From: Somniosus microcephalus
Taxonomy: Eukaryota
Assembly: GCA_052327205.1 (NCBI GenBank)
Contig: CM126210.1
Span: 184,264,001-184,328,000, forward strand
Direction: 5' to 3'
DNA length: 64,000 nucleotides
Every line of letters starts with the position of its first letter. Positions within the stretch are counted from its first letter, which is position 1. This document shows, one piece after another, positions 10,331 to 55,248 of the stretch. A program made the position numbers and the translations under genes. A model generated the notes under the pieces. The model worked only from the letters and a program-made list of their open reading frames with translations. It was not told the DNA's origin and ran no database searches.

Positions 10331-10344
10331 TCTGGGGGGGCGCA

Positions 10345-17695: not shown

Positions 17696-17951
17696 CCTAG
17701 CCAATCAAGCACTTTTGCCTCGCAGCTTCTTACCCGAGCATCGACAATGGCCAAGGACCAGTGGATTCCTAGCAATTTGACCACCATACTGACAATTGCA
17801 AGTAATCCTAAGCCCTCAATGTGAAAGCCCCAATCGCGAAATGACACACGCCACAACTACAGCAGTAGCTATCAGATTTTTTATTTACATTATTCATCTG
17901 ATGGCTTTTTCACAGAAATCATCAAATTTCACCCAAGTGACTACCTTGTGA

Positions 17952-20181: not shown

Positions 20182-20436
20182 GAAAGGCCAACAGGTTGGC
20201 AGTCTGCAGAAGAAGCAAGGCTTGTTGCAGACCTTAAATGCAGCAGCAATGATGACGTCATCGGAGGCGACTTTCAGACTGGAAAAATTCATTTGCCATG
20301 GGTTCCCACACGTTGGAACTCAATCGGCCAACTAAGTTAAAATCGCATCAATCTCCCACATCGATTTCGATCCAGTTGGATAACATGAAATGCGGATTAC
20401 ATGACCCCAGCCCGCCCCTGAATTAAAATCCAGCCC

Positions 20437-26009: not shown

Positions 26010-26317
26010 GAGGTGTGACAAAATGTTGTTCATTTTTTTACTAAAGGCCAATGCTCGTGGTCAATTTTTTTTTAGTGTTTTGGACATTATCTCCAGGTTG
26101 TGAGAGCCAGTTATGTTAATGACTGTTTTTTTTTGTGTTTCTTTCTATTAGTTTGTCATGCAGAAATGACACAGAGTTTGTAAAATAAAAAAGTTTCTGT
26201 ATTCAAAATGTACATGTATGGTCTTTGGAATCATTGCTGCCTTGGCCGGCTTAGGGGTTGCGGGTTGGTTTCATTCATGTTGTTCTCAATGGCAGAAGCC
26301 ATTTCCTCAGCAGGGGC

Positions 26318-27547: not shown

Positions 27548-28214
27548 AACTATTTCAGACAGCGTTGACTTAATGCAGAAGTCCCTCTTTCTCTCTCTCT
27601 CAAAATCTCTCTCTCTCTCAGAACGAGTGGTGCAAAAATGTCTACCACAGAAAAAGCCAGGAAGAGGCCACCTTTAAATAGCGCCCCCCCAGCCCCACAG
27701 CGACTGTGTAGCGTTCCAGTTTACCTGTCGTTGGTAGTGCCAGGTGGAAAGGAGGGGGGCGCCACTCAATTTCCGTTCCAGGGTGCCCCATGGGCATTGC
27801 ACGCTCGAATGACGTCAAGATCTGCGTGCGCAGGAGATTGGGCGATAATGTTTAGTGCCGCCGCAAAATGTCCGGTCAATTCCATGAGAGGTGCAGATAT
27901 CACCTCGCCCGGGCGCTAGTTGCTTTGCGCCCCATTCGCGCCCTCTTAAGGCGCTAACGGGAGGCGCAAACCAACTGAATTTTTCCCCCATAGGACCCTT
28001 CCCATTTAATGTAGTTCAGTATATTATAAATGTACTGTAAATATTCCTTGCTGACCCCAAGTCACTCCCTAATATTGTTCTGAGTCCCAGAGCAGCCTGT
28101 CACTCAAATCTATTTGCCATTTTCTTCGCTGGGCTGTTACGAAGGAGTGCTGCATCCAAGCAGATGTGATCTATCTCAAGGAAGCTAAATGTGCAATCTT
28201 GCACATACACAGCA

Positions 28215-30657: not shown

Positions 30658-33600
30658 TCAGTCTTTGGGGCGGCTTCCTGATCCTTTCTGGATAGCGCCT
30701 TGCTCTTGGTGCGGAGGCGATTCTGGCCCCCTGTCATCGGTTGGTTCATCAGCTTCCGATGCTACTGTTTCTGGGGTAGATGCTACATGTATATCGGGTT
30801 CATCACCAGGTACGCGAGACATGGGGTTGACTCGTTCCTGTGACTCTAGGATCTGGTCGACATGGCGTCTCACAATGTTCTCCCCAACATCCACTGTGTA
30901 CATTAGTGGCCCCTGCCGTGTGCATATCGTTCCTGGTTGCCATTTCTCTGTTCAGTAGTCGCGGGCCAAGACTGGTTGCCCTACATTGAAGCTCCTTGTC
31001 GGCTTCTCATTGATGTGCTGGAATTGCTTATTCTCAACATCTCTTCGTACACTTGGTCTGAGCAAATCCAGACGAGATCTCAACCTTCGGTTAAAGAACA
31101 TCCTGGCCGGGGTCTGGTTGGTGACTGCATGTGTCGCATTTCTGTAGGCTAACAGGAAATTGTCCACCTTATGCTGCAGTGGAATGTCGTCATCGCACAT
31201 GGCCCTTACTGCCTTTTTAAAGGTTTGTACAAACCTCTCAGCCAATCCATTATGGCTGGATGATACGGGGCGGATGTGTAATGCCTTACCCCATTCCTTT
31301 TCATAAATTTCCGAAACTCTTCGGACACAAACTGTGGTCCGTTATCAGAGCAAATCTTCTCTGGCAAGCCGTTCCTGGCAAATATGGTCCGTAGGACTGC
31401 AATCGTTTTCTCCGTGGTGGTGGAGGACATTTTGATCACCTCAGGCCATTTCGAGTGCGCATCCACGGCTATTAAAAACATTGAGTCCATGAATGGACCA
31501 GCAAAATCAATATGCACCCGTTGCCATGGAGAGGAGGGCCACTCCCATGGGTGTAGAGGGGCCTGTGGTGGTGCATTTTGGACCTTCTGGCATCCTGAGC
31601 AGCTCTTTGTCAGGTCATCGATTTGCTGATCGATCCCCGGCCACCACACATAAGCCCTAGCAAGGCTTTTCATTTTCACCCCTCCCAGATGGCCTTCGTG
31701 AAGCTCATTGAGCACTCTCTCCCTTAACTTGGGTGGAATTACCACTCGGGATCCACACATCAAGGTCCCCTGGCACACTGACAGCTGTTCTCTTCTGGAT
31801 GAGAATGCTGGCAACAGTGAGTCGCCATGTGTTGGCCGTCAAGTCATATACCCGAGACAGTGTCGGGTCATTTCGGGTCTCCTTCTCTATATCCACGTTA
31901 GTTACTGGCAAGCGTTCAATTATAGTCGAATAAAATATTTCGACAGGGTCCACTGCTGGTGGTTCCTCCGCCGTAGGCAGTGGCAGGCGTGATAGCCCAT
32001 CAGCGTTTCCATGCTGTTTCGTGCCCTTATACTCGATTTCATATTGGTTCGCCCCTACAAAAAGGGACCATCTTTGTAACCGTTGCGCAGTCATCACCGG
32101 AACGCCCTTCTTTGGATTAAAGATGGAGACAAGTGGTTGGTGGTCAGTCAGCAAGGTGAACTTCTGCCTGTGCAGATAGTGGTTGAACTTTTTCACTCCC
32201 CACACTGGGCTGAGGGCCTCCCTGTCAATCTGGGCGTAGTTACGCTCGGCTGAGTTTAGTGACTGAGACGCAAAGGCTACTGGCCTCTCCGAGTCGTCCG
32301 GGAATTTGTGCGACAGCACCGCTCTAATACCATAGGGTGATGCATCACACGCCAACCGAATTGGTAGTGCTGGGTTGAAATGAGCCAACACCTCTTTTGA
32401 TGTGATTAATTATTTGCACTTCTGGAAAGCTCGTTTACATTCGTCATTCCACTTCCATGGTACCCCCATTTGCAGTAGGGTGTTCAGTGGGTGTAGTACT
32501 GTAGACAAATTCGGCAAGAACTTATGGTAGTAGTTCACCAGCCCGAGGAATGACCTCAGTTGTGACACATTTTCCGGTGCTGGAGCCTTGTCTACGGCCT
32601 CAATCTTTTCAGGGACTTATGTAACCCCTCTTCATCAATAACGTGGCCACAATACGAGATCTGCTTCTGGAAAAACTCGCATTTGTGGCGATTAGCTCGT
32701 AGCCCATATTCCATCAATCTAGTGAGCACCTGCTCCAGGTTGGCGAGGTGATCACTGTCATTTTCGCCAGTGACCAGGATGTCATCCAAATAACACTGGG
32801 TCCCTGGAATCCCTTGCAGGAATTGATCCATTGCCCTTTGACAAATAGCCGGAGCTGATGCTACCCCGAACACCAGCCGGTTGTATTGTTAGAGACCTTC
32901 ATGAGTGTTGATCGTGAGGTACTATTTCGAGGCTTCTTCTACCTCCATTTGCAGGTACGCCTGGGCCAGATCAATCTTAGTGAAGCATTTTCCTCAGGAT
33001 AGCAAGGCAAAAATATCTTCAATCCGCGGAAGCGGATATTGTACCGTGTGAAGGATTGGGTTCACTGTCACCTTAAAGTCCCCACAGATGCGAACCTTCT
33101 TTGGTTCCCCAGGCGTATTACTCAACGACCTCTTCATTACAGGAACGATGGGTGTGGCCCACTCGCCCCAGTCCACTTTGGACAGTGCTCCAGAACGTTC
33201 CAAACCTTCCAGCTCTGCTTCGACAGCTGGGCGGATCTCATAAGGTACCGGTCTGGCCTTCAAAAACTTTGGGCTTGCATTTTCCTCTATTTTGATCGTC
33301 GCTGTTATGCCTTTTAGTGTTCCGAGTCCCTCCTGGAACACTTCTTGTGCATCAGTTAGCATTTTTGATAGTCGTCCAGGTGCGACGTCGTCATCCTTTT
33401 TGGCATCTACAGTCAGTGCTTGTATGGAATGCCAATCTAGCTGTATCTTCTGGATCCATTCACATCCTAGTAGTGGTGGTCCTCCATCTGGCAATACATA
33501 CAGGTCCATTTTTGGTGTTTCCTTGCCGTTATATATAACGTTCACCCTTATTTTTCCTTTGGGGTAGACTTTGTGCCCCGTGTACGTCTTCAAGACAATC

Positions 33601-34569
33601 TCTATCTCTCAAGGGTATATGTGAGAATAGCCGCTTGTAATCCCTTCGGTTTATGACTGTTAGGGCTGATCCTGTGTCCAATTCCATTTTCACTTGGACT
33701 CCGTCTATCTTGAGCGTGACCCAGATAGTTTGGTGATCCTCCATTTTGATTACATTATGTAGTTTCAGACAACCCAGCTCCTTGCTTCCGGAGTCTGTAT
33801 CACTTTTCTGTTCGTCTGAACTACTCTCCGTCACCTTATGTACCTTTTTGTACTTCTCCTGTGGAGATTTCTTGCTGCTGGTTTCCTTTCCCGACCGGCT
33901 GACTCTTGCTATGTGTCCTACTTTTCCACACTGTCTGCACACTTGGTCCTTGAACCAACAATCCTTATGGTCGTGTGTTGTTCTGCCGCAGCGATAACAC
34001 TTCACTGCTCCATATGACATTTCATTTGTGCCATATTCTTGCAGTCTCCGTTGTATCTCTGCACCGCCCCGTGCGGCTGCTTCGTGAGATACTGCCATGC
34101 TGAAAGCCTTGTCCAGCGTAAGATCCTTTTCTGATAGAAGCCGTTTCTGGGTTCCTTCACTTTGAAGCCCACACACAAACTTGTCCCTTAAAGTATCTGC
34201 TAGTCCCGTTCCAAACTGGCAGTGTTTCGATAGCTTGCGCAGTTCCGTTAAATACTCAGCATTACTTTTGTCTTTATGCTGGTTCCTTTTGTGAAACTTA
34301 AATCTTTCTGCTATCAGCAGCGGTGTGGGGTTTAAGTGGTCCTGTAGGATTGCCACTATGCTTTCAAAATCCTTTTCCACTGGCTTCTCTGGGGTTACTA
34401 GGTTTCACAGTAAGCCATACGTTTTTGCACCCATGGAATTCAACAATACCAGTGCTTTCCTGGCATCTGGCACTTCATTCGCCTTGCAGTACACTTCTAT
34501 GCGTTCTACATATGTCGCCCAATCTTCGATTTCATTGTCGAACGCTGTGACACTGCCACTCTTCGGCAT
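30658..34569 (-). pseudogene. gag-pol with multiple frameshifts and stops
   Basis: IAERFKF, LDTGSA, RICGDFK, YLDD, ACDASPYG, LHEGH..C..C, HIDFAGP, SDNGPQF. Confidence 0.94.
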
Positions 34570-36612: not shown

Positions 36613-39600
36613 TCATGTAAGAAAAAGGAGTCTCACACATCAAGTAACTTATAATCACACTATATACAAGAGAGGTCTTCACCATGCCTCTGGTAGAAGC
36701 CCCTTACAATACTGAGCAGTTCAGTATTTATACCAGTCCAACAGGAAGTGATGTATGACAGGAAGTGATGTATGTACAAAGTTCACAGTTCACAGGAAGT
36801 GACACATAACTTCCCGGAAGTTATCATTATTATCACATTCTTCCCTCCTGCAGGATTAGAAGGCTGTGGTCTTCCTTTTGTTCTGCAGCCGCCGAACGGG
36901 GAAGAGTCGCACCCATTTGGGTTCCCGTCGTAGAGGGTCGCTGGTCCACTTACATGCGGTTGGCCATTGGTCAGAGTCTGTGTGGCCTGGATTACCCTGT
37001 GAAGGGTCGGGGAGATCATGGCTTCGTGTACGAGCCCCAATAGGTTCAAAGTCGGTCTGCCTCTGTTCAGAGGGAGGTGCAGAGCTGGTCTGTGGTGGAT
37101 CAGTACTTTCGTGCGCGGTACTGGGAGGGTCGCAACTTTGAGTATGGGGTTCTACCGGCACCAAGCTAGTTGGTGTCCGATCAGGATCCTGGAGAGGGGT
37201 ACCCGATCGGTTCCAAGAGTTTCCTGGTAAAATACCATCTCCCGATGTCCCACTAGGTCCTGGTGGGCAGGGAGCCAGATCCCGTAATGATACGGTAGAT
37301 TCTCGGCCGTCGGGATATCGTATGTTTGCATAGGTGGGGTTGGCATTGGTTAGTTCGACCTCGTCTACGAGAGGGTCATTTTTAGACGTCCGAACGTATC
37401 TTCGGAGTAGAACAGGTCCAGGAGTAGTTAGCCATGATGGGAGTGATGTCCCATGAGATGAGCGACGCTGGAATCCAAAGAACCGCTCATGAGGTGTAGT
37501 ATTTGTGGCTGTAGAAAGAAGGGACCGTATAGAGTGCAATGCATCCGGAAGCACTGCTTCCCATTGCTGGTCTGGTAGGCCCCGAGATCTTAAAGCAAGA
37601 CGTACGGAATTCCAGATGATACCGTTATACCTCTCTACCTGCCCATTTCCGATGGGATGGTATGGTGTTGTTTTGCTTGTAGCAACTCCCTGTTCTGAGA
37701 GGTAGTCCTTGAGTTCCTTTGACATAAAGGATGGACCCCGATCTGAGTGAATATAAGCCGGCATGCCACAGAGAGAAAATACCTGCTCAAGGCAGCAGAT
37801 TACTGTGGACGCCAGCATATTGGAGCAGGGGAAGGCAAACGGAAAACGTGAATATTCATCAATCATGGTGAGCAAATATGTGTTCCGAGTGGAAGAGGGC
37901 ACTGGGCCCTTAAAATCGATGCTAAGTCGTTGCATCGGTTGGGTTGCGTGTATGAGCATACCATCTGAGGGGCGGAAGAACTGAGGTTTTAATTCCGCAC
38001 AAAGCCAGCATTCTGAGCATATTTTCTTTACATCTCCAGTAGAAAAAGGGAGATTCCGTGATCGTACGAAATGTAGCATGCGCGTAACGCCAGGATGACA
38101 CAATCCATTATGGACATCTATAAGAGTAGAGGACGACATAGCGGAGCAGAATGCCCGTGTGAGGGTGTCCGGGGCCACATTCTCCTTGCCAGGTCGATAG
38201 TGAATGGTATAACCAAAAGAGGCCAGTTCCATCCTCCAAAGTTGTATTTTATTATTCTTAATTTTGGTTCGTTTTCGATTATCGAGCATGAAGGCGACTG
38301 ATCGCTGGTCCGTGATTAATGTAAAGTGCTGGCGAGCTAGAAAATGGTTCCACTTCCGTACTGCCTCTATGATGGCTGTGGCTTCCTTCTCAACCGGAGG
38401 ATAATGTAGCTCGGCACCTTGTAAGGTCCTGGACGTATATGCTACAGGACGACCTTCTGATTTAGAGTAGCCGAGATCGCCACCTCCGAGGCATCACATT
38501 CGACTATGAAAGGGAGATTCTCATCGATGGAGTGAAGAGCCGCTTTCTCCAACTGTTTTTTGAGAAGGTTAAAGGCTGCAACAGCCACTGTTTCCAATGG
38601 AAATGATCTAGCATGCAGCAAGGGTTGGATTTTGTCTGAAAAATGAGGAATCCATTTAGCGTAGTATGCAAACAGACCGAGAGCCCAACGTAAAGAAGCC
38701 GGATTCTTAGGTGACGGGAGCTCTTGGAGCGGGCGAAGTCTTTCTGGGTCTGGCTTAATGATACCATTGCCTACGCAGTAGCCAAGGATGTTGATGGTCG
38801 GTTGCGACTCAACAGACTTAGATTCATTCAAGGTTAAGTTACGGCGATGGAGGGCATCCCGAAATTTTTGGAGGTTGGCGTCGTGTTCCTGTTGATTGTG
38901 ACCTGCAATAGTAATGTTATCAAGATAGGGAAAAGTGTCCCTTAGGTTTTCCTGTTTAACCAGGCCATCCATTGCCCGTTGGAAGACAGCCACTCCATTA
39001 GTAACCCCGAATGGGAGGCGACAAAATTGGTACAGCCGTCCATTAGCCTCAAAGGCCGTGTACTGCTTATCTGAGACCTTCAAGGGTACCTGATGATAGG
39101 CACTTTTTAAATCGTAAGTTGAGAACACTTTGTATTCGGCCAGTTTATTAACCATATCATCAATGCGTGGCAATGGGTAGGCGTCCAAGTCAGTATATTG
39201 ATTGATGGTTTGCGAATAATCAATGCATAGTCGTTGTTTGTGAGGTTTTAGAGGGTTCTTGACAATGACGACTTGAGCCCGCCAGGGCGACGAACATGTT
39301 TCAATGATATCCTCTGCTAGAAGTCGAGAGATTTCAGCCTCAATAAAAGATTGGTCTTCCTGATTAAAGCGCTGCGATTTCGTTATTATTGGTTTGCATC
39401 GAGGCAGAATACTGGCAAATAATGAGGGTTCATCAAGTGAAGCTGCTGACAATGCACGAAACGGTAATTTAGACGGTATATTAGAAATAGTAAGTCCAGG
39501 TTTGGATCCGCCGAACTCAATGGTGAGTTTCTTATGCTGTTTTTGGAAATCCAGCCCTAAGAGGAGATCACTACATAAGTCCTTGAGCACCGAAAGTCGG

Positions 39601-41124
39601 GTGGAGGGATACAGGCGACCATTAAGTGTCATATCAACAACACAAAAGCCGGAGGTTCTGGTATTAAGTGATGACTGAGCCATCGCAATTGCCTGGTCCG
39701 ATGGGAAGACATGTAGTTTCAATTTCGCAACAATCTGTTCTTTAATGAAACTATCAGTACTTCCTGAGTGAATTAAGGCATCTAAGGTATGCCCTTTAAT
39801 TGAAACTTTTGTAGCTGCATGAAACAGGTTCTGTGGGCAAGCAGCTGTAATTGGTGTCGTTGCACAGAGAGTGGCTGAAACTCTCGGTGTGCTTCTTCGG
39901 GAGAGAGCTCGAGAGGAAGCTTGATAGGCCCTAGCTGGAGCATCTTGATAGGCCCTAATTGGGGCAGTTCGGTAGGCCTTAGCTGGATAGGCCCTCGTAG
40001 AGGCTTTTGATTGGCAAACTTTAGCAAAGTGTCCTTTTTTTTGCAATAACTGCAGATTGCATTGCGAGCAGGGCAGAATTTCCTAGGGTGAAAAGCATCT
40101 CCACAAAAGAAGCATTCCTTCCTAGATTGCCAAGAGGCTGCTAAAGTGGGGTCATCCTCCTCTTCTTCATCAGAATTATCAGAATTAGATTCCTCCATGA
40201 TAGGGTTCACCTGAGACCACTTGAATTGTCTGGTTGCAGTTACAGCAGCAGATCGAGATCTGGGCAGCTGATAGAGGTCTGCATTTTTCTTTGCCAAATC
40301 CAGAGAACAAGCTAGGTCAAAAGCTTTTTGTAGCTCAAGTGTTTTACTTTCTAGTAGACGCTGGCGTATAAATGGAGAGGCAATCCCGCAGATGAAAGCA
40401 TCACGAATCATTTCTTCGCGGTACAGCTCAGCTGAGGCTGCCTGAAAGTTACAATCTATGCTGAGCCTGCGAAGTTCTTGAAGGAATTCGTTAATCGATT
40501 CCCCTGGCCCTTGTCGGGCTGTGGCCAGTAGATGTCTAGCATAGACCTCATTTGGAGTCTTGGCATACAGTTTCTTAAGTGCCCGAATCACCTCATCGTA
40601 ATTATCCCATTCATCAACATATTCAAACACTGTTGGGGTCACATAGTTGATAAGTATCCTCAGTTTAGTAGGAGCATTCGCTTTACATTCATCCAGAAAA
40701 TTCTCAAAAGTACGGTACCAATGCTTCCATACCCTGCCAGCTGCTGGTGTGTTCGGGTCCAAGTCCAGACAAGTAGGTTTAAGGATGTTTTCCATGATGG
40801 GTGGTTCCCTGGATCCTTAACTCCGAGTTTGTCCGAAGGTCTAGTATTTGTGAGTGTAAATACTAAGTTGCTTAAATTGATGTAAGAAAAAGGAGTCTCA
40901 CACATCAAGTAACTTTAAAGTAAGCTTTAAGCAACTTATAATCACACTATATACAAGAGAGGTCTTCACCATGCCTCTGGTAGAAGCCCCTTACAATACT
41001 GAGCAGTTCAGTATTTATACCAGTCCAACAGGAAGTGATGTATGACAGGAAGTGATGTATGTACAAAGTTCACAGTTCACAGGAAGTGACACATAACTTC
41101 CCGGAAGTTATCATTATTATCACA
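36613..41124 (-). mobile_element. Full-length Ty3/Gypsy LTR retrotransposon without a tRNA-type PBS
   Basis: LTRs 36613-36837 and 40878-41124; TSD GATCC/GATCC; PPT AGGAGGGAAGAA. Confidence 0.96.
36856..40795 (-). pseudogene. gag-pol with two frameshifts; protease DSG motif reads HSG
   Basis: ORFs 39782..40795 (Gag), 38442..40046 (PR-RT-RH; YLDN, ECDAS), 36856..38289 (IN; IDFKGP, SDRG, NGQVER). Confidence 0.94.
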
Positions 41125-41996: not shown

Positions 41997-43447
41997 GTAT
42001 TAAATGTGAAGTTGTTTAAAACTATAACAAATATATTTGCTATCCCTTTGTCATTCAATGTTGAATAATTAGAAACCCTAGCAACAATATAACACACATA
42101 AATATAATACATATTACTTTATGACCTAGTTAGTTAGTCTACAGTTAATTCTATTTTTCATAAACAAAAATGCCATCAATATCTCCATCAATCTAAAATT
42201 TGCTGTCATCCCTGAGAACCATCTGGAGGAAGTGTCATATTATGTCCATGTTACTAAAACATCTTAATCTTGTTAGGATTTTCTCTTACTTTTTAAGTCT
42301 GTTTTTCTTGGCGGGGGGAGGGGGTGGGGTCATTTGCTTTTCAATTAGTTGACCAGCTTATTTCAGATTTTTAGATAAATACAAATTTCTTTCTGTTCTG
42401 CAGGCAATAAAACTTTTTTTAAGGAGTTTTATTCACACTTGCCTTTGTTCCTTCAGTTTATTTCTCTCTCGCAACAATTTCACCTCTCCTTTTACATTCT
42501 TATTTGTATTTTTTCTCTGTTTCCTTTTTAAGTGTACCATTTTCATATAACAAAGTATGGTAAACCTTTCGTTATTACTTATACAATGCAATGATGTGAA
42601 CAGCTCCTAAACATACTGAAGCATGACTTGGGTGTGATTTCATTGTGATGAAAGTGTAGCACGAGACTTCAGGCTTTCCTCCCTCAACTAAAAAATGAGG
42701 TTGGTCGAACAATTTGTCATGAAGATATTTAATGCCATTTCTTTTCATTTTCCACGAGCAATTGAAAATAGCCAGTTTTTTGCTTCAACAGCAGAAAATG
42801 CTGGCAACACTCAGCAGGTCAGGCAGCACCGTGGAGAGAGAAACAGAGTTAACGGGCCAGTAATTCCGGTCCCAACGCGTGAGTACGGACGGTGTACTCA
42901 CGCGTGGGCCCGTTGGAAGTGCCGGATTCCAGCATGCACTGCGCGCACGCGTTGAACTTCCTTCGTTTCGACAGGTTTGCGCGTGTGCAAGGGCCTGGAC
43001 TTTTTGGAAATTAAAAAAGGAGGCGTAAGGAGTGGATTCTTGAAGGTAAGTGGTCTATTATTTAAAATTATTACATTTTTTCCACAGCTTCATTGGCCTA
43101 GAAATTCAGTTTTGCCAGTTTTGGGGCGCTAACGTTAGCACCCGCCTGACTTTAGCGCCCGCCCCAAAGTTGCGCCCCCTTCGCCGAAATTCAGTTGCTT
43201 CGCCCTAAGAGGTTGCTGGAGCGCTAAAAGAGGCGTTACACGACTATCTTTAGGCGCTAAGCCGGCGGTGCAGAGGGATAGCGCCGAGGCCGGGCGCAGC
43301 GCGGGTGCGGTCATTTTTTGATTGACAGCAGACCCCGTGGCGCCGGCCAGCTCTTAAAGGGGGAAGGGACGATTTGGTCTGCTGCCACGCCCTGCACACT
43401 GCAGCTTTCAAACTAGGCCTCAACACTGCTGCTGAGCCCAATGAGCC

Positions 43448-45397
43448 ATGGCAACGCATGAGAAGGCCCGTGAGCGTGCCCTGCGCTTCTCAGAGCGTGA
43501 TCTGGATATCATGCTGACAGCATTGGAGAAGAGGCGCAGGATCTTGTTCCCAGACAATGGCAGGAATCCCACCCACCGTGTCTACACCAAAGCCTGGAGG
43601 GAGATCGCCACCAGGGTGTCATCCTACGGCGATGCCCCCAGGGACAAGGTGCAATGTTGGAAGAAATACAATGACCTGACCAGGATTGTCAGGGTGAGTA
43701 CCCTTTCCACTCTCCTCCTCATTCTTGCATGTACACCTGACATGATGGGCAAAGGGACCTGAAAGGCCTAATGGCCAGCCCTCAGCCAGCAGCTTTGGGA
43801 CAGTCATGGGCATCAATTGCACATTCTGCACTTTACACACTGGCCAAGCTATTCCACCATGAGAGGCAGTGCACACTAGATCAGAGCTACACTCTGGCCA
43901 AGCTATTCCACCATGGGAGGCAGTGCACACTACGTCACGGCTACACACCGTACTTAGAGCCCGTCCTTTCTCTTGCAGGCTAAACTTGTGAATAATCGCA
44001 AGCGCCGCGACATCACCGGGGGAAGCCGCGCCAAGTTCCAGAAGCTCACTCCCCTGGAGGAGCGCGTGAGTGGCCTCATGGGAGGCCACGTGATTGTGCC
44101 CAGAGCGTGCGGAGAAGCTGACCCTCCGCTGCCCGGCAGTGGTCAGGACCTCGCCTTTTGGCCCTCTCTCGTCGCACTTGCGCATCCGAGCTACCTCCTT
44201 TGCCACTGTGCCACCAATGCGCTGAATGCCACCAGTCATGACTCCCTCGCTGACGCCCTCTCCTCACTCTGAAGCTACTCTCGTGCCTTTCTGCTTTCAG
44301 CTGGTGATGAAGAGCTCCCTGAAGCTGCCAGTGACAGCCCCTCCGAACAGGAGGAGGAGGAGGAGGAGGAGGAGGAAGAGCAACCCGGACCATCAGGGGA
44401 GGACTCAGGTCCCGCAGCAGAGGGCGAAGTGTTGGACACATCTTCCCTGGATGAGAGCCTGGAGCAACTTTCGGAGGGGAGTGCAGCTGCTGGGACCAGT
44501 GGCATCCAGCCACCCAGGAGGGCTGCGGGTGGGCCGCGGCCTTCCCCCCAGAGGGGGGAAGGATCGGAGGGGAGTGCAGTTGCTGCGGACATTCGGTGCC
44601 AGCAACGTGCCAAGGGTCGCCTAGCTCGGACCCCTGCTCCCCAGCGGGAGAATCCCGCCTCCAGTCCGCCCACCTTCACCTCGGAGGAGGTGCGCCAGCT
44701 GGACCAAATGGCTTAGGATTCGGACCGCCGCCACACAGAGCTCATGCAGATGGTGGGACAGATGCCTGAGGCCATCGAGTCGCTGGCGACCAGTGTGCGG
44801 GAGTTTGCGGCATCAAATGCCGAGAGTGGCCGGATGATGATGGAGGTAGTGGAACGGATGCCTCCGGCGATGGAGTCGCTGGCTGATGCCGTCAAGTCAG
44901 TGGCGGATGTGATGCGGGAGCAGACCAGGGCAACAGGGGCACTCACTGCTGCCACACGCGCTGCCTCAGCCAGGCATCGCCAGGACACCCGCCGCGCTGC
45001 AGCAGCACAGCGATCCGCCCTTCGGCTGATTGGTGCGGATCGTGCAGTGCGTGCCCGGGCGAGTGCCAGCGTGCGACATCACCAGCCAGCGCCTCCAATA
45101 CGCCAGCTTGCCCACATTGCACCATCCGTCGCCGCCACTCCCCCAGTGGAGCATCAACGGCAAGCGGCTGGAGCTGATGGTGGGCATGCACATGTGCGCC
45201 AATCAACAGCCGGCCCCTCAAGGCCCAAAGCCCGTGTAGGCCGCCCCCCAAGGCCATCTGGCGGAAGGACATCTGACCCTCAGGCGCCTTCCCCCAGCCT
45301 CGCAGCAGCCACTGGGCAGAGCTTGCGGAGGAGCAGTAGGCCGGGCAGGGGCACCAAAAGGCTGGACAAGGTCTCGCCCTCGCGGGCCACTAAGTAG
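43448..45397 (+). pseudogene. H3 Myb/SANT-like gene; exons 43448-43693, 43979-44141, 44301-45397 (~500 aa); single in-frame TAG at 44714
   Basis: RFSERDLDIML...KAWREIA...QCWKKYNDL; frame preserved across predicted introns and across the TAG. Confidence 0.88.
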
Positions 45398-45759
45398 AGG
45401 GTGTGGCCAGCTTTCATTTTATATGGCGGTGGACATCTTTATTTTGCCCATGGTTGTTTTGTTTATGGGTATGTTTTTTGCGTTAAGGCCGAGGTTGAGG
45501 CCTGGTTTGTTCAAATGTGGAGTTACTCCTCCCCAGGTTGTGGGAGTGAATCGTTTGTTGCACTTTTTGTGGGGGCCGTTGATTGTTTTTGGGATTCATG
45601 TGGGAAGGGGTTTCATTTTTGTCAAATATAAATTTATCTTTATTCAGACAGTGTCCATGGTTGTTCTTGTTAGTCTTTGTTGCCTTCGCCGGCTGAAGGC
45701 TTGCGGAGTGGCTGCATTCATCTTGCTTCATGGCCACAAGGCATTCCCTGACAGGGGGC

Positions 45760-46908
45760 TTAGAAGTTACGTTCAATAAGCTGGCGACGGACGGCCCTTG
45801 GACCTTGTCGCTCCCTCCTGGGAACGTACTCCTCCTCCTCCTCCTCCTCCTCCTGCTCCTCCTGCTCCTCCTCCTGAGGTGGTGGTCCAACGTCAGGTGG
45901 CAGTGCCTGAATCCTGCGGAGAGCCAGGTTGTGTAGCATGCAGCAAACTACGACAAATTGGGAGACCCGGTGCGGCGAATACTGCAGAGATCCGCCGGAA
46001 CGATCAAGGCAGCGGAACCGCTGCTTGAGGACCCCAATAGTTTGCTCGATGATGTTTCTGCTCCTTTGATGGCTCTCGTTGTATGCCTCTTCAGCAGCGG
46101 TCCTGGGCGCGCGGAGCGGGGTCATGAGCCAGGTACACAAAGGATAGCCTTTGTCCCCGAGTAGCCATCCTCTTGGGGGAGGCTGTGCCGTGAACATGTC
46201 ATGCACAGTACTCTGCCGCAGGATAAAGGCATCGTGGCAGCTGCCTGGAAAGCAGGCATTGACAGCCAGGATGCGCTGCTTGTGGTCACACACCAGCTGC
46301 ACATTGAGAGAATGGTAGCCCTTCCGGTTGCGACACTGCTCGCCAGGCTCCAGAGGTGCCCGCAAAGCCACATGCGTACAGTCAATGGCGCCCTGCACCA
46401 AGGGGAAGGCTGCGAGTCTAGCAAATCCCACTGCACGCTGATGTTGGTTCTCCAGGGCCATGGGGAAGGAGATGAATTGGCGTCTCCTTCTGAAAAGGGC
46501 ATCGGTCACCTGGCGGATGCAGCGATGCACGCCGAACTGGGATATGTTAGCTATGTCCCCAACAGCGGATTGGAAGGAGCCGGTGGCATAGAAGTTCAAT
46601 GCCACCGTCACCTTCACTTCCACCGACAGAGACGTCCTGCACCTGAGCTTTGGACGCAGATCTCTGCGAAGCAGGTGGCAGATCTCTGCAACCACCTCCT
46701 TTCGGAATCTCAGCCTTCTTACACATCGCGCGCCACTCATGGTGAGGTAGGAGCACTGCTGGCGGTATACCCTGACTGGGTAAGGCCTATGTTGCCGATG
46801 CCTGTTGCCCCCTCTGCCTCTAGCCAGGGCTGCCCCTCTGACCCCGCGTCTGCGAGCCCTACGCACATGGCGCTGAAACTCCGCGTTGGCACCCCATGCA
46901 GCCCCCAT
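45760..46908 (-). CDS. Intact HARBI1-like DDE transposase (~382 aa from ATG 46908)
   Basis: Uninterrupted ORF with GAIDCTHV, GSCHDA, LLGDKGY, IEQTIGVLKQRFRCL, CCMLHN. Confidence 0.95.
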   Translation of the reverse strand: MGAAWGANAEFQRHVRRARRRGVRGAALARGRGGNRHRQHRPYPVRVYRQQCSYLTMSGARCVRRLRFRKEVVAEICHLLRRDLRPKLRCRTSLSVEVKVTVALNFYATGSFQSAVGDIANISQFGVHRCIRQVTDALFRRRRQFISFPMALENQHQRAVGFARLAAFPLVQGAIDCTHVALRAPLEPGEQCRNRKGYHSLNVQLVCDHKQRILAVNACFPGSCHDAFILRQSTVHDMFTAQPPPRGWLLGDKGYPLCTWLMTPLRAPRTAAEEAYNESHQRSRNIIEQTIGVLKQRFRCLDRSGGSLQYSPHRVSQFVVVCCMLHNLALRRIQALPPDVGPPPQEEEQEEQEEEEEEEEYVPRRERQGPRAVRRQLIERNF

Positions 46909-47854
46909 CAAATGCTGGCAAACAGTCACATTTCCAACAGGGCACTTGCAGCGCTTTGGCCTGAGTCCAAAAATACCTGAGCTATTGCTGCACGAAACCA
47001 GTTAGCTCTCCTCCTTGTTGTGTGTCCAGAAATCCGTTGCACAAGAGTGTTTGCTGCAAAATGGCTGCCCTTTATACTGCAGGGTACGTGCCCTTTAATT
47101 TGCGATCCCCGGGGCCCGCGTCGGCTGTGTTGCGTTCCATTTTACAAACGCTCTGGCCGCCAGCCGCACAATGGGGCGGTCCGACTGAAGTTTGGAATCG
47201 GGGCGCGCAAAGGGCATTGCACGAGGATGTGACGTCATTTTCTGCGCGCGCAGCCGGGCGGCGCTAAACTTTGCGCTGGTGCTAAGGGTCAACTTAATTT
47301 GGGGCGAGGCGCAAACTGCGCTGCGCCCGGGCGCTACACGCATAGCGCCCGAAATTCACTTCTCTTAAGGCGCTAACTGCTGGCGCAACCAACTGAATTT
47401 CTAGGCCATTGTTTTTAAGGACTTTACAGTAAGGTAAGTTTATTTTTAGACCCGAATTCGTAAAAAAAAAAAATTTCAAAAATGTTATTAATTGTTTTAA
47501 ATAGTTTTTTAAAGTTATTTATAGTTTATTTAATTATTGGGATGTTTTTTAAAATTTTTATTAAAGTTAAACTAGTCTTTTGGGCGCCCATACTTTTCAT
47601 GAGTTTGACAGTCTTTACTATCAAACTCATGAATGAGTTTCCCTCCCCTGATTGGCTGCAGAGTGCTCACCTGATCCCAGCCGGCACATCGCACTAACTA
47701 CGCCGCTGGATCAGGTAAGCACATCGCGCCGACATCTGAACCGGGCCAGTGACAGGAAATGCAAACAGGTCCGGGATTCAGATGTCAGCGCGCAGGGTGA
47801 GTGCAGATCGGGGGCTTGCACGCGCGGCAAGCCCCCGATCCTAATTTCTGGCCC

Positions 47855-47919
47855 AACGTTTCAGGTTGATGACCCTTCATCAGAACTCTGACGAAGGGTC
47901 ATCGACCTGAAACATTAAC
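47855..47919. ncRNA. Two back-to-back minimal hammerhead motifs (minus 47855-47887; plus 47888-47919), both damaged
   Basis: CTGA(T/C)GA-AGGGTCATC(A/G)ACCT-GAAAC(G/A)TT on each strand. Confidence 0.6.
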
Positions 47920-49352
47920 CCTGTTTCTCTCTCTCTCCACGATGCTGCCTGACCTGCTGAGTATTTCCAGCATTTTCTGTTGTTGTTTCAGATTTCCAGC
48001 ATCCGCAGTATTTTGCTAATGTGAGGTTTTTTGCTTGCAAGGTATCCTTTATCAATTGTTTTATCTCACTCATTGTGCATACCTTCCATTGTTACATATC
48101 TTAATCTATTTTGCTTGCTTTATATTTAGCTGTATTTTTAACACATCTTTAATATTCTCAGTATTTGAAATGAGCCTATAATTTCTGATGTGAGATATTA
48201 CCATATGTGCATTTAACAATTTAGTACAGATCCCCTATTTCCTGGTCACCCTGTTCACCTCTTTGCCATACATTCAATTTACCACTGATTTGAACCTGAT
48301 ATATTTGATAGATATACTCAATGGGATAAATTAGACGATTTATTGTTCCCAGTGCAAGGTATGTATGAAGCAAGAACTTGGATGCAGAGGTTAGCGTACC
48401 CGATTCACAATATTGTATTCCCATTACACAAAACTCTGCTGCAAGAGCACTACATTGGAAAACTTACCCAAGTGTGTAAATGGCACAGTATTGGTTCATG
48501 TGACAAAAATGTAAGATTCTCACTAGTTTGTCTCTGCTCCACAACTCTAAGATGGAGTGAACACTCACTCTTTCAGTTCAGCCGATTGAGCACAAAATGC
48601 GCTAGAGACAGGTGCATGACCCAGCTACATTAAAAAGTTTAGCAAATTCCAATTAATTTCAGGGTCAATTTTACTATGTGGCACAGAGCTTTACATGGAT
48701 GATTCAAAGCCCACAGGATCTTTCTTCCCTCCCATCATGCAAAGCTCTGCACTGAGAGCACGAACTCAATGGGCCATAATTTGCCGTCAAAGTAATGGTG
48801 AGGCTAATGGCACTCACCGTTATTTATGCGCAAATACTACAGCGACTTCAGGCGAGAGATATAGGGGGAAAAATTCAGTTGGTTAGCGCCTCCCGTTAGC
48901 ACCAGCAGCTGGCACTAACAGGGCGCTGATGCAGTAGCGCCGGGGCGAGGCGAATCCAGTGACGCTCAGCAAATCCGGACCCCCTGTTGCGCCGCCAGTA
49001 CGAGTTACCACTGGGAACTTCAACACTAGGCAGATTGTGATGTAAGCGACGGCGCCCGATCTGCAAAATTCATTTTCGCCAACTACCTTAGCACCTCAAA
49101 CAAACAGCGACAGGGAAAGGAGGCATCAAGCAGGCGGAAGCCGGCTCCAGAGATGTTAATTAAAGGGACCATGAGTAATGAGTCGCAGCTGTCAGTTTAA
49201 TGGAATTTCAGTGCTCTCTTATCAGTTTGATATTGTGCAACAGTTTAATTCAGGAATATAAAGTTTCATTTGTATCAGGAGTGTTGGGGTAACTAAAAAG
49301 TAGTCTCATTTATTCTTAAAACATATCAAAGTGCTACACTTGGCTTACATTA

Positions 49353-51458
49353 ATGGGGGCTGTACTGGCAGTCTACCTGGCCTTCCAGGATCTACTGCGG
49401 AGGGAGCGGAGGCAGCGACAAAGAGTGGAACATGTGGCCGGAGGGAGGAGGAGGGCCATCAGTGTCCTCAACAGGAGGCCCTACCCTCCGAGAGTATTCT
49501 GAAAGCATTTCCCATAACTCCAATTAAGCAAGGAGCAGTGTATTAGAAGCAAGACGAACATGCATGTGTCTTTGCCAGGATAGCAGGGTTCCCCATGGTG
49601 CAGGGCACCATTGACTGCACCCATGTGGCTTTGCGAGCACCGCATAACAATCCTGAGATCTTCCGTAACCGCAAAGGCTACCACTCTCTTAATGTGCAGT
49701 TGGTGCGACCACAGACAGTGAATCCTCAATGTGAATGCCCGCTATCCTGGCAGCAGCCATGATGCCTTCATTCTGCACTAGACCAGTGTGCCAGCACTCT
49801 ACCAGCCACCACATCAAGTTCGCGGCTGGCTGGTCGGAGACAAGGGCTATCCGCTCTTCACCTGGCTCATGACTTCCCTGCGCAACCCCAACACTCCTAC
49901 CAAGCACTCATATAATGAGAGCCATGCCACCACCAGGAATATCATCGAGCAGACCATCGGGGTGCTCAAGCAATGGTTCCGCTGCCTTGTCCGCTCGGGA
50001 GGAGCCATCCAGTACTCGGCTGAGCGGGTGTCCCATTTCGTGGTGGTCTGCTGCATGCTCCACACCTTGGCCATCATGAGGGCTCAGCCCTTGCCACCAG
50101 TGATTGTGGGACCACCTCAGGAGGAGGAAGAGGATGAGGATGAGGAGGAGGACACGGAGGAGTTAGTGTAAAGCTAAGGCACATGGGATTGGGGGCAAGG
50201 TATTGACTTGGATAGAGAACTGGTTGGCAAACAGAAAGCAAAGAGTTGGAATAAACGGGTCTTTATCCGAGTGGCAGGCAGTGACTAGTGGGGTACCGCA
50301 GGGATCAGTCCTAGGACCCCAGCTGTTCACAATATATATTAATGATCTAGACGAGGGAACTAGATGTAATATCTCCAAGTTTGCAGATGACACAAAGCTG
50401 GGTGGGCGTGTGTGCTGTGAGGAGGATGCTGAGGAACTCCAGGATGATTTGGACAGGTTGGGTGATTGGGCAGAAGCATGGCAGATGCACTATAACGTGG
50501 ATAAATGCGAGGTTATCCACTTTGGAGGCAAAAACAGGAAGGCAGATTATTATCTGAATGGCAATAGATTGGGAGAAGGGGAAGTGCAACAAGACCTGGG
50601 TGTCCGTGTGCACCAGTCACTGAAGGTAAGCATGCAGGTGCAGCAGGCAGTTAAGAAGGCAAATGGTATGTTGGCCTTCGTAGCGAGAGGGTTTGAGTAC
50701 AGGAACAAGGATGTCCTACTACAGTTGTACAGGGCCTTGGTGAGACCACACTTTGAGTATTGTGTGCAGTTTTGGTCGCCTTATCTGAGGAAGGATGTTC
50801 TTGCCATGGAGGGAGTGCAGCAAAGATTCACCAGGCTGATACCTGGGATGGCAGGAATGACGTATGAGGAGAGATTGGGTCGATTGGGCTTATACTCGCT
50901 GGAGTTTAGAAGAATGAGAGGGGATCTCATTGAAACTTATAAAATTCTAACAGGACTAGACAGACTGGATGCAGGAAGGATGTTCCCGATGGTCGGGAGT
51001 CCAGAACCAGGGGTCACAGTCTAAGAATAAGGGGTAAGCCATTTAGGACTGAGATGAGGAGGAATTTTTTCACCCAGAGAGTGGTGAACCTGTGGAATCC
51101 TCTACCACAGAAGGCAGTGGAGGCCAATTTATTAAATATATTCAAGAAGGAGTTGGATATATTTCTTAAGGCTAAAGGGATCAAGGGATATGGGGAGAAG
51201 GCAGGAACAGGGTACTGAGTTTGGATGATCAGCCATGATCTCATTGAATGGCGGAGCAGGCTCGAGGGGCTGAATGGCCTACTCCTGCTCCTATCTTCTA
51301 TGTATCTATGTGTCTATGAAGAGGATGAGGATGAGGAGAAGGACGAGGAGATGATGATGAGGAGGAGGAACAGGAGCGAGGGAGGAGGCAGCCACTCAAT
51401 CGGCCTTGCGGAAGGGCGGTCCGTGATCGCCTCACCAGCCTGCGGTTCGAACGAATGA
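49353..51458 (+). pseudogene. H4 transposase, internally deleted, CR1 inserted in the Glu-rich tail
   Basis: [42 protein letters not shown]. Confidence 0.88.
50154..51317 (+). mobile_element. 5'-truncated CR1 LINE (RT C-terminus + 3'UTR)
   Basis: SGVPQGSVLGP, KFADDTK, LVRPHFEYCVQFWSP; tail cctactcctgctcct...ctatgtatctatg. Confidence 0.95.
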
Positions 51459-51618
51459 AACCCCAGATCCCCGTTGGTCACCACATCCCCATCATTCCAT
51501 CCCTGTCGCAGACCATATTACAATGCAAAGCTGAAATGAGAGACACCACAAAAGAATCCAAACTGAATTAATAAATTTATCAATAATCAGTGAACACATA
51601 TTTACAAAAAAATATTAA

Positions 51619-53774
51619 CTATTCACCCTTGTGCAATCCCTTAGTGCTCCTCGTTACTGTGCCTTTGCCTACTCTAGTGCTCCTATGAAGTTTTGGCCCA
51701 GTGGCTGCAGCAGGGCTGGTGGAAAGCTGCTGAGTGTCCGTGCGGGAGACTTCAGATGGCCTTGCAGGACGCCCTCGACCAGCTCTGGGCCTGGAAGGCC
51801 CGGCTGTGGACTGCACCACCTCAGCATGGGCGGCAGCAGTCTGGGCTGGCTGGATGACAGGTAGCGACTGTCTTGTTTTGCACACTTTGTACAAAAATAA
51901 TAAATTGCAGGACAACGGAGTATTACAGTTTAAACTCTTTTAATGAAGCATCAGGTCTGTAAACTTTCTCAATCAATACAGCACCGTGTGGACAAGATGG
52001 AGTCAGGACCCTGGGTCCTCCAAAACAATAGCAGTCCTTACAGATGCCTGCAGGCCAATGACAATTCAGCATGTGATCACATGTGAATATAATAGGCATT
52101 CCTGACAGATGCCTGCGGGCCAATGATAATTCAGTGTGCAAATCTTACAGCGACAAGGGTAATGGCGGAGTGGCAGTGGTGGGAGCAGGAATGCAGTCAT
52201 CCTGAGAGAGGACAGCAGGTTCCTGCTCCACTGACCCCCTGCCACTCCCCCGGGGCAGCACCTCATCATCCCTAATAAACTGTTGGAGCACAGATTGCTG
52301 GCCTGCTGCGACACCGTGAAAGCCCTGGTCGACAGTGGTAGACCCAGTCACGATGGCAGCAGTCAGAGCTTGCGTGGCATCAAGCTGAGACTGCATGAGA
52401 GCAGTCCGAAATTGGATGTCACCAAGCATAGACTGCATTACAGCACTAATACGACATGTCGCTTCCGCCTGTGCTGTAATGGAAGCTGCCAGATCGCCCA
52501 TCACACGCGGTATCAGGTCTGGGTCACCACGGTCTCTCTGGGAGTCTACCATCCTTTGCAGACTGGAAATGATGAGCTCCATTGTGTGCGCAGAGCCCTG
52601 TGCAATGTTGGAGGTGGACTCCTCCACGCTCCTTACCATTGCGAGAGGCTCTCGGGCACCCTTGCCATTGCACTTATCATCTCCGTGTGCATGCCCATCA
52701 CCCTTCTTCTAAAGACCTCCCTATCGAGGCTCTCATCTGAGTCCTGTGCAGCAGAACTCGCCCTCCGGGGAGCTGCCCCCAAGCTACCCTTTCCCCCGGA
52801 TTTGCTGCAGCCCACTTGTCCCCGGTGCCTCTCCCTTTGCTGATCCCGCTACTATACTATCCTCTAAAGAACACGTAGTGCCAGTATCTGAGATGATGCC
52901 TGCGGGTGAGACATGCACTGACGCGGTGTGTTCTTCCTCGTCCTCTTCTCCCGCCTCGCTCTCTACGGTGCCCTCAGGGACAGGATGCTTAGGTGCTTGC
53001 TCATTATCTGAAAGCATAAAGGCACAAGAGTCAGGTTAAGGTGAGAGGAGGGGGGCAGGAAGGGATTAGCTGGAAAGTGCAAAACACTTGTGCAGTGAGG
53101 AGGAAGTGGGATGTGAGAAGGAGGAGTAGGGATGAACATACCGTTGTTGTCCCCAAGGGGGGTCAACGTCGCCAGTGGCCATGGTGCCCACCACCTGCGC
53201 CCAATAATCTGCAGCACTCTTTCCTCCAGCGCAGACGGTGGTTGGGTGTCGGCTTGTCCCCCACCTGTGCACTCCTGCTCCCTCCTGTTGTGAGCCACCT
53301 TGGCCTGCAATAGAAAGGAAATTATGTGAGTGATTGTGGAGCAATGTGTTTGGGTGATGTGCCTGCCATAGTTTAATAGTTGTCATTGTGTGCAAAATGT
53401 GAGGTGTGTGTGTGAGTGTTGGCAGGTATTGATTGTTAGTGGGTGATTGCTGGGGGTGTGGTGCTTTGGGCAGTGTGTGAAGACTGTGCTTCGGATGGTA
53501 GTATGTAGCATTTGTTGAAGCATTGACTCACCCTGACCACCCGAGTGAGGTTGTTAAATTTCTTCCTGTACTGTGTGTGGGTCCTGGAGACCTCAGTGCG
53601 GCCCGAGACATGCTGGGCTACCTCCCTTCACATGGTGCGGATGACTTATGGTGAGGGCCTCCTGCCACTTGCTCGGTAGAGCACCGCCCTCTGTCTCCCC
53701 ACAGCGAACACCAACGCCTCCAATGCGTGATCGCAGAATCTGCAGGCTCTCTCCCTGGGGCGTGGATCTGCCAT
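51619..53774 (-). pseudogene. H4 Myb/SANT-like gene (exons ~53774-53532, 53304-53142, 53007-51619)
   Basis: RFCDHALEALV; AKVAHNRREQECTGGG; C-terminus AATGPKLHRSTR. Confidence 0.85.
51869..52149 (-). mobile_element. Solo LTR
   Basis: TG...CA ends; 5-bp TSD GCGAC/GCGAC; internal direct repeat cagatgcctgc.ggccaatga. Confidence 0.85.
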
Positions 53775-55100
53775 CAGTACAGCTGCTTGAGTCATCCAGG
53801 CTCCTTCTACTTGACCTGCTGCTGCTTGCTGAGGCAGCTGCACAGCTAGCAATGCTGAGAATGAGGTTCTACAGCATCAATGAACCTCCCCTTTATGAAC
53901 TGGGAAAAGCCTATGGCAATGATGACTTGCGATTGAACTGCACCTGATATTGGGTCACCCTTTGAATGTAACGCCAATGAGCTTGGGCTTTAAGGCTTGA
54001 ATTAGCGCCCCAATCATTTCTTTGAGCAATGAGACATAGTTTTGCGTGCAGTCTAAAGCATTAGCGTCTGGCGCTAATTCTGCAGCTTTTCTAATTTTAT
54101 CGCCCATTCCTGGGCTATAATGAATTTCTAGCCCTAGCATCTTCAATGGTGAGCCAGAAATCGAGATGCGATTTCACAAAATGTATTGAATGGCGCGAAG
54201 TTGCTGTATTTGCGTGGTAGATGTGCATTAAACTCATCACAGAAAGTTAAGTCTTGTCCATTTCAATCTCAGTACCCTTTCAATGATGTGATAAATGTTC
54301 ATTACTGCCAGTCAACCCCCGTGGCACAAAAAAATAACTATTTCTTCAGGTTTCATTCCTTCAGGTTTTAATTGCTGTTGGAGATTTTTTTTTTAATGTA
54401 ATTTTAAATCAAAAAAATGTTTTTTTTTACTTTTCCTTTCTGTCGCTTTTTTTTCTCTCTCTTTCTTTCCCCCTCTTTATTTCTCTTTCTGTACCTGATT
54501 TGACATTGAATTAAGTATTCTAATTTACACTTCCTTCTCAGTCCTGGCGCTGTTAATTTCACAATCCTTCAACCTGATTGGTGTAGGAGACACAGAGTTG
54601 CTTGCCCTGTTCACTCCGGTCCCAGATGCCCGGGTTCCCTCGCTGCGCCGCTATCAGCTCGCGCTTTCAGCAACTTGTGGCGCAAAATATCATCGCAATT
54701 AAATGAGCAAAGGGCAAGTCTAAATAACAGCAGACGCCATTCGTTGCCCTGGTACAGCAAATTATGGCCTGTTAAATTTATTCCTGTGTGACTGATCTTA
54801 TGTGGAACCAGTGAAGCATCATAAAGAGAATTAACACTGGTTTAATGCATTTTAAGCATGCAAAATGGAATTTGACCTCTTTAAGAGTACCATTGAGAAA
54901 TCTCTGCATGCCTTGTTATTGCAACATTCAATAAAAATATTACTATAAAAATGGCAAATCACTATAACAGACACTCAGGATTTTTGAGGTTAACTGACTT
55001 TTTAACCCTTTGAGCCCTGCAGTAGCATTTCAGTACCAAAATCAAACAGAGCAAGATCACAATTATTTTATTAACTCTGATACAATGAGTTAAGGAATGA

Positions 55101-55248
55101 AATAAAAACAGAAAATGCTGGAAACACTCAACAAGTCAGGTGGCATCTGTGGAGAGAGCAACAGAGTTAACACTGCCTGACCTGCTGAGTGGTTCCAGCA
55201 CTTTTAATTTTTATTTCAGATTTCCAGCATTTGCAAGGTTTTATTTTG
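55101..55248. mobile_element. Short Penelope-derived foldback insertion
   Basis: Same pseudo-LTR sequence as 42786-42853 in inverted arms; 14-bp flanking direct repeat GAGTTAAGGAATGA. Confidence 0.8.

Follow-up and report, generated by a model that had tools for sequence, protein, structure and literature searches.

The question raised by this locus is whether a near-intact vertebrate Harbinger transposon lies a single substitution away from a complete two-component system. The window analysed comprises 64,000 nucleotides of Somniosus microcephalus (GenBank assembly GCA_052327205.1, contig CM126210.1, positions 184,264,001 to 184,328,000 of the forward strand), and the element in question, a full-length two-gene Harbinger of 4,313 bp, spans positions 43095-47407. 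The original prediction described a transposon of a young, possibly active family whose Myb/SANT gene had a TAG at 44714 as its only evident lesion. We could identify both genes, the terminal inverted repeats (TIRs) as well as the target-site duplication (TSD) of a complete two-component Harbinger; our reading of its state, to which we assign a probability of about 0.7, is that a full-length elasmobranch Harbinger inserted in an older Harbinger-type miniature inverted-repeat transposable element (MITE), then underwent light neutral decay (~0.3-3%) and is now non-autonomous. The copy is unusually well preserved and probably unable to transpose autonomously, and it carries at least one damaging change, probably two or three.

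The ends of the element are as predicted. The TIRs, which begin with GG, agree at 17 of 17 bases and mismatch from base 18, and the triplet ATT is present on both sides (Table 1). In a window-wide scan for perfect 11-mer inverted ends starting with G and accompanied by a 3-bp duplication, the pair 43095/47407 was the sole match, while exact 17-mer inverted pairs appeared in one of 20 shuffled control windows. The 64-kb window contains no second copy of the older host element that could serve as an empty site for the ATT duplication. GCGCTAA repeats occur in the left subterminal region at 43126, 43152 (reverse), 43221 and 43254, and the presumed Myb promoter motif TTAAAG at 43354 is also found in H2 and H4, two of the sister Harbingers in the window. 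In the right subterminal region the presumed transposase promoter has TATAAA at 47076 (minus strand), and TGACGTCA at 47230 is common to H2. The predicted high CpG content held in part: the observed/expected ratio of 0.66 exceeds that of four sisters (0.29-0.46) and of the window flanks (0.47-0.55), but the older host element reaches 0.99-1.25. The CpG content of the element is high only relative to its sister copies.

Both genes are readily recognized. The transposase frame (46908-45760) is free of stops, retains D176, D226, D252 and E288, and scores 127.8 bits against PF13359 (DDE_Tnp_4; cut-off 24.8), in agreement with the claim of an uninterrupted transposase with catalytic motifs. Spliced in frame, the three Myb exons give 501 codons, among them a single internal stop, the TAG at 44714, and the Myb/SANT domain scores 41.6 bits against PF13873 (cut-off 21.7) in Pfam. 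A spliced Myb gene of about 500 codons was therefore correctly foreseen, but that the TAG is the only evident lesion was not confirmed, with Cys192 of the transposase and Trp71 of the Myb protein breaking strongly conserved positions.

We consider the TAG first. The exon 1 donor GTGAGT lies at the equal position in sisters H2, H4 and H5, and the exon 2 and exon 3 junctions, including the exon 3 acceptor, are common to H2 and H4. The codon at 44714, which the original prediction had singled out for inspection, is ACC in H2, the one sister from which the residue at codon 275 is known (Thr); H2 reads open and colinear through the site and is 41% identical to the Myb gene across the 226 codons after it. 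The ratio of nonsynonymous to synonymous substitution rates against H2 is 0.49-0.56 downstream of the TAG, 0.35-0.39 in exons 1-2 and 0.24-0.34 in the transposase, values (0.24-0.56) which indicate that the coding sequence on both sides of the TAG evolved under purifying selection. The shared junctions, the open and colinear frame of H2 and the selection downstream show that the TAG is a true lesion cutting real coding sequence. If instead the TAG were bypassed by alternative splicing or read-through, or if a shorter Myb protein naturally terminated there, the gene would be functional. Published teleost Harbinger Myb proteins are often ~230-350 aa (PMC9179366 supplement), GT occurs in frame upstream of the TAG at 44429 and 44579, and the stop codon itself ends in AG. 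Splicing around the TAG was nevertheless rejected, with 8 pyrimidines among the 18 bases before this AG against a threshold of 13 for listing acceptors; the state of H2 and the downstream selection also oppose a bypass, and a conserved helix would go missing, which leaves this explanation very improbable.

The segment behind the TAG is predicted to form a single helix of ~115 residues followed by a disordered tail, in a model built from a two-sequence alignment (mean predicted local distance difference test score, pLDDT, 62.8; helix blocks mostly 73-92). Because the C-terminal parts of Ping Myb, ALP2, HDP2 and NAIF1 bind the nuclease (PMC7282668), the TAG likely removes a transposase-binding arm, consisting of the long C-terminal helix and the basic tail. 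In a word-index search for Myb homologues, 0 of 8000 candidates were recovered with exon 3 read through and 0 of 38 with exon 1 against longer proteins, and a PDB sequence search with the Myb protein gave no real match. A profile-library search yielded 49 unnamed hits, which were left out of the comparison. The Myb gene also contains a 54-bp tandem pair (89% alike) in intron 1, within 43834-43941, and spaced repeats of 93 bp and 96 bp in exon 3 (44471-44606 and 44744-44883), the last inside the long helix. The two converging genes both contain poly-Glu tracts (44349-44380 and 45829-45876); separated by 1.45 kb, these constitute a long, imperfect inverted repeat.

The transposase probably carries a second lesion, Cys192, two residues ahead of NRKG. 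Among the 113 named homologues with a residue in this column, out of 119 used, 88 have Phe, 22 Tyr, three another residue and none Cys; the column ranks third in residue-class conservation across the transposase alignment, and Cys192 is the only break of this transposase among 110 columns class-conserved at >=85%. Published fish and amphioxus consensus transposases show Phe or Tyr in 30 of 31 readable cases, as judged by eye from the available part of the PMC9179366 supplement. Weaker departures (His236, Ala167, Gly126 and Ser283) may be family traits, the homologues being this distant. The structure model of the transposase is confident (pLDDT 83.7), and its closest solved folds by VIA-align are piggyBac (Z 10.2, root-mean-square deviation 4.7, 230 aligned) and Tn5 (Z 9.2), matches to a generic DDE fold which do not place residue 192 and leave room for a closer structure. 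Foldseek returned nothing at E 0.001 or better, and a PDB sequence search no real match. Pfam gave nothing for the antisense open reading frames (ORFs) 46165-46980 and 45240-45779.

A third, candidate lesion is Trp71 in the recognition helix of the Myb domain. This residue is Arg in four of five window sisters and Cys in the fifth, Arg in P0005 of Pristiophorus japonicus and Gln in a Myb fragment near 13.6 kb of the window. A count by eye over the 27 readable Myb sequences in one part of the PMC9179366 supplement gave Arg or Lys in 22, Gln in three, Leu in two and Trp in none. An origin of Trp71 by CpG decay was considered and dropped; the sisters use AGA or AGG at codon 71. The Myb gene departs from its sisters in the exon 2 donor as well (GTCAGG, against GTAAGG and GTATGT).

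How many lesions should be expected? Nonsense changes make up 2.3-3.3% of the possible point mutations in the 2,649 coding bases, which corresponds to 22-30 missense changes per nonsense and makes the TAG unlikely as the lone coding change. Under neutral decay following insertion, which this arithmetic assumes, a copy with one stop and no frameshift would be free of missense changes with a probability of 0.001-0.16, a range that spans every mutation model and prior used, and the expected divergence of the copy is 0.3-3%. One class-breaking change and no stop are found in the transposase of the element, compared with 14 such changes and nine stops in four sister transposase stretches; a stop together with a class-breaking missense change matches the decay pattern of the sisters.

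The same evidence bears on the possibility of a very young copy of an active family, in which the TAG would be the sole real defect, Cys192 and Trp71 tolerated family traits, and intact masters present elsewhere. The perfect ends, the absence of frameshifts and insertions across the coding bases and a CpG ratio highest among the five window elements would all fit, and of the six departures found where the homologues are >=70% conserved, five are not clearly damaging. The low probability of a solitary nonsense change and the rank of column 192 make such a history unlikely, as do the lack of a near-identical protein among the best 120 of 255 database matches and the fact that, partial matches to the ends aside, the window contains no close copy or MITE of the family. 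With Cys192 a probable and Trp71 a candidate lesion, the claim that the element is one substitution from complete is improbable too.

Several points nevertheless weigh against light decay with more than one lesion. Two divergent zebrafish copies (DR_copy20 and DR_copy22, PMC9179366 supplement) have Cys at 192, and among 109 named homologues only two show no break in the 110 columns and seven at most one. The TIRs and TSD of the element are free of mutations. Since the best homologues reach only 66% identity, both Cys192 and Trp71 could be characteristic of the family. The decay estimate, furthermore, takes the TAG to be genuine sequence acquired after insertion.

The estimate of decay can be turned into an age. 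At the mutation rate of the epaulette shark, 7e-10 per base per generation (confidence interval 1.4-14.1e-10; PMC10587355), 0.3-3% corresponds to 4-43 million generations if the host rate is alike, a figure that no longer holds if the lesions are assembly errors or were inherited from a defective master. With mutation so slow in sharks, good preservation becomes a weaker argument for a recent insertion. The locus offers a general caution: behind one visible stop many unseen missense changes are to be expected, and a nearly intact element in a slow-mutating shark need not be a recent one.

Inherited lesions are the basis of another explanation, in which a defective master was amplified in trans and its copies, perhaps recent, were never autonomous, a 274-aa Myb protein acting as repressor. 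A stop in the last exon should escape junction-dependent nonsense decay, so the 274-aa protein could be made and could occupy the TIRs; the TAG is a last-exon stop that spares the entire Myb domain, and multi-copy single-gene variants are known for Harbinger-Snek (PMC8437027). The window has no close second copy with the same lesions, and Trp71 may spoil the DNA binding that repression needs. We regard a defective master as quite unlikely.

Under the preferred reading of an autonomous family with a decayed copy, a mechanism can be proposed from published Harbinger work. The Myb protein, which binds to both TIRs and transposase, conveys the latter to the nucleus (PMC2836001, PMC9392472, PMC9179366), and both proteins are required for transposition (PMC2836001), as the original prediction had stated. 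In an intact member of the family, the Myb trihelix domain would bind the TIRs, the C-terminal part of the Myb protein would bind the N-terminal half of the transposase and carry it into the nucleus, and the DDE transposase would excise the element and integrate it anew, duplicating 3 bp. In the present copy, the TAG would cost the Myb protein its long C-terminal helix and its basic tail, likely the transposase-binding part; Cys192 would probably weaken the transposase, and DNA binding may suffer from Trp71. Such a copy would be unable to move itself, and its perfect ends would remain a substrate in trans, given an intact family member elsewhere in the genome.

Table 1. Features of the Harbinger element, its host element and the related elements in the window.
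Feature	Position	Strand	Remarks
Left TSD ATT	43092-43094	.	Same triplet at other flank
Left TIR, 17 bp	43095-43111	+	17/17 match with right end
Left subterminal region and presumed Myb promoter	43112-43447	+	Motif positions; function presumed
Myb exon 1, Myb/SANT trihelix domain, 82 codons	43448-43693	+	PF13873, E 1.2e-10
Myb codon 71 TGG (Trp), helix 3, candidate lesion	43658-43660	+	Relatives mostly Arg/Lys
Myb exon 2	43979-44141	+	Donor GTCAGG, weaker than sisters' GTAAGG / GTATGT
Myb exon 3, coding for an acidic linker, a long helix (codons ~277-391) and a disordered basic tail	44301-45397	+	
Premature TAG, Myb codon 275 of 501	44714-44716	+	Just ahead of long helix
DDE transposase, intronless, 382 aa, convergent with Myb gene	45760-46908	-	PF13359, E 3.7e-37
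Transposase codon 192 TGT (Cys), probable second lesion	46333-46335	-	Homologues Phe/Tyr
Right subterminal region and presumed transposase promoter	46909-47390	-	Motif positions; function presumed
Right TIR, 17 bp	47391-47407	-	17/17 match with left end
Right TSD ATT	47408-47410	.	Same triplet at left flank
Older non-coding Harbinger-like host element	42854-47854	.	~0.7 kb minus insert; ends 12/16 alike; AAC duplication
Decayed two-gene Harbinger	15930-20435		
Sister H2	23615-27989	Same orientation as element	4,375 bp; ends 15/16 alike; ATA duplication
Decayed two-gene Harbinger H4	48864-54134		Reverse-transcriptase ORF inside at 50167-51024
Decayed two-gene Harbinger	~59.9-63.1 kb		

The setting of the element is nested. 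Its host element is itself inserted in a palindromic repeat, and because the joined flanks of 42854-47854 match an uninterrupted copy of this repeat (11232-11321) at 88% across the junction, the AAC at the ends of the host element is a true duplication. Internal palindromes of the host element lie at 42867-42912, 47596-47633 and 47806-47840. The surrounding palindromic short repeat, which has a central hairpin, is present in three window copies (42786-42853 plus 47855-48022, 11189-11321 and 55098-55230). Rfam at gathering score gave no match in the window, this repeat included, and the idea of a hammerhead ribozyme in the repeat obtained no support.

Besides the element, the window holds four other two-gene Harbingers, every one with stops, and the five together occupy about one third of it; the element is the best preserved among them. 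The H2 transposase is 64% identical to that of the element and has two stops, and its Myb exon 3 is frameshifted. Myb fragments lie near 13.6 kb and 36.0 kb. Duplications of 2 bp (TA) are found at the Harbinger-type ends 48864/54134 and 57364/58112, the latter in a CTAG context, and members of this Harbinger clade may differ in the length and sequence of their target sites. The transposase-side ends of H4 (48864-48900) and H2 (27950-27989) are near-identical over ~35 bases and their opposite ends differ, a pattern that may reflect end swapping or shared descent. Three further end pairs (35601/36198, 12718/15396 and 38622/39557, the last inside the ORF of a long terminal repeat (LTR) element) were dropped for a poor end match or the lack of a duplication. 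Retroelement domains were found in nine of the 19 window ORFs scanned and the other 10 had none; none of the 19 was recognisable as a host gene. LTR-type pol regions lie at 6796-10420, 31206-34404 and 36856-40816, and an endonuclease ORF and a reverse-transcriptase ORF of the long interspersed nuclear element type at 878-2353 and 14411-15505.

A protein search with the transposase returned 255 matches; most of the best 120 belong to sharks and rays and bear the label 'putative nuclease HARBI1'. The closest of these 120 come from Pristiophorus japonicus (65-66%), with others from Heptranchias, Mobula and Narcine, and none is near-identical (top 66%). In a tree of 26 of these named proteins and four window sequences, which include no Nuwa or teleost reference, the transposase falls within a shark and ray clade of 25 rows (support 100/99) and adjoins sister H2 (92/91, not starred), a placement in line with an elasmobranch host. 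The HARBI1-labelled elasmobranch proteins share this clade, and the Myb domain of P0005 is 37% identical to that of the element over 118 aa, but they represent separate families, at most 66% identical and with a median of nine breaks in the 110 columns. P0005 combines Myb and transposase domains in one annotated protein, which is probably a gene-prediction join.

The HARBI1 labels and the open transposase frame could suggest a domesticated host gene pair of the HARBI1/NAIF1 kind instead of a transposon copy. Domesticated HARBI1 and NAIF1 are single-copy host genes without transposon ends; the present locus has TIRs, a TSD, a nested insertion and sister copies, four further such elements lie within the 64 kb, and the neighbourhood consists of repeats only. 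Because only 43 of 102 HARBI1-labelled proteins keep all four acidic residues, we read these names as automatic labels on transposon copies, and domestication is hardly credible here.

The element shows all four sequence-level marks of the broad PIF/Harbinger superfamily: TIRs under 60 bp with G or A as first base (PMC9179366, PMC4482050), here 17/17 bp with a GG start; a 3-bp TSD, here ATT on both sides; a DDE_Tnp_4 transposase; and a second, Myb/SANT gene. This copy, with its TAG at codon 275, does not have both ORFs intact, the mark by which Han et al. 2015 recognized potentially active families. Its TSD also separates it from the groups of these authors, to judge from sequence: ATT is neither the TWA of strict PHIS PIF/Harbinger nor the CWG of NuwaI, and the site C|ATT|G fits the NuwaII target C|TNA|G in its flanks and not in its core. 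The ANT of Pangu does accommodate ATT, but the second ORF of Pangu has no Myb motif, whereas a Myb domain is present here; ATT thus fits no Myb-bearing group of Han et al. 2015 (TWA, CWG, C|TNA|G). The duplications ATT, ATA, AAC and TA in the window, from a handful of old insertions, hint at a relaxed target site. One may go further and imagine intact masters still moving in this lineage, with a relaxed AT-rich 2-3-bp target and truncated Myb copies damping the family; we offer this as a speculation with the odds against it. Such a family, with ATT, ATA, AAC and TA among related window ends, would differ from the PHIS groups, which are defined by fixed TSDs. The element is a member of an undescribed elasmobranch family within a known superfamily; no paper on elasmobranch two-gene Harbinger families was found in the open-access literature, a search that leaves Repbase, Dfam and subscription papers aside.

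Sharks evidently carry many two-gene Harbingers. PHIS elements were reported absent from sharks (PMC4482050) and Harbingers from the elephant shark (PMC9179366), so that, as far as the available parts of these two papers go, such elements had been called absent or untested; the accessible sections of the whale shark and grey reef shark genome papers list Harbinger as a repeat class only. As in this window, large and diverse Harbinger loads have been described in vertebrates with a slow-evolving or a large genome, with LatiHarb1 of the coelacanth and the Myb-Harbingers of Pleurodeles, a likeness by description, not by sequence, in other hosts. No Harbinger transposase was found among solved structures by sequence or fold. 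The copy is a good template for a consensus of its family, and should an intact, polymorphic family stand behind it, assays and structural work would gain a natural two-component Harbinger from a vertebrate.

Among known systems, zebrafish Harbinger3_DR had to be reconstructed (Sinzelle 2008, as cited in PMC2836001 and PMC3016246), as the original prediction stated, and the available part of a 2010 paper names rice Ping and Pong as the sole naturally active Harbingers. Harbinger3_DR and the element are alike in having two genes, a DDE_Tnp_4 transposase and a Myb protein, short TIRs and a 3-bp TSD, and the transposase motifs of Harbinger-3_DR align by eye with those of the element (PMC9179366 supplement). 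They differ in the TSD (CWG in Harbinger3_DR), in the 15-bp palindromic target, to which the element has no visible match, and in the 501-aa Myb protein with its long helix and tail; the element, moreover, is known here from sequence alone. With NuwaI, NuwaII and strict PIF-Harbinger (DDE and Myb/SANT genes, ~4.1-4.7 kb, TIRs starting with GG; PMC4482050) the element shares both genes, a similar size and the GG start, and differs in the TSD, as set out above.

The implied rarity of intact vertebrate Harbingers did not survive comparison with the literature. In 2015 both ORFs were intact in 88 + 11 + 22 = 121 families across eukaryotes, in groups that include bony fish, turtle and amphibian (PMC4482050), and 269 fully intact copies of Harbinger-Snek were counted in the sea krait Laticauda colubrina (PMC8437027); because these copies and families are in print, intact vertebrate Harbingers are not rare. 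Harbinger-Snek resembles the element as a vertebrate two-gene transposon that has full-length copies as well as single-gene variants. It was acquired by horizontal transfer, whereas the element nests among shark and ray relatives. In L. colubrina it has 269 intact copies, and in L. laticaudata reads cover both ORFs (PMC8437027), which makes Harbinger-Snek the better candidate for natural activity.

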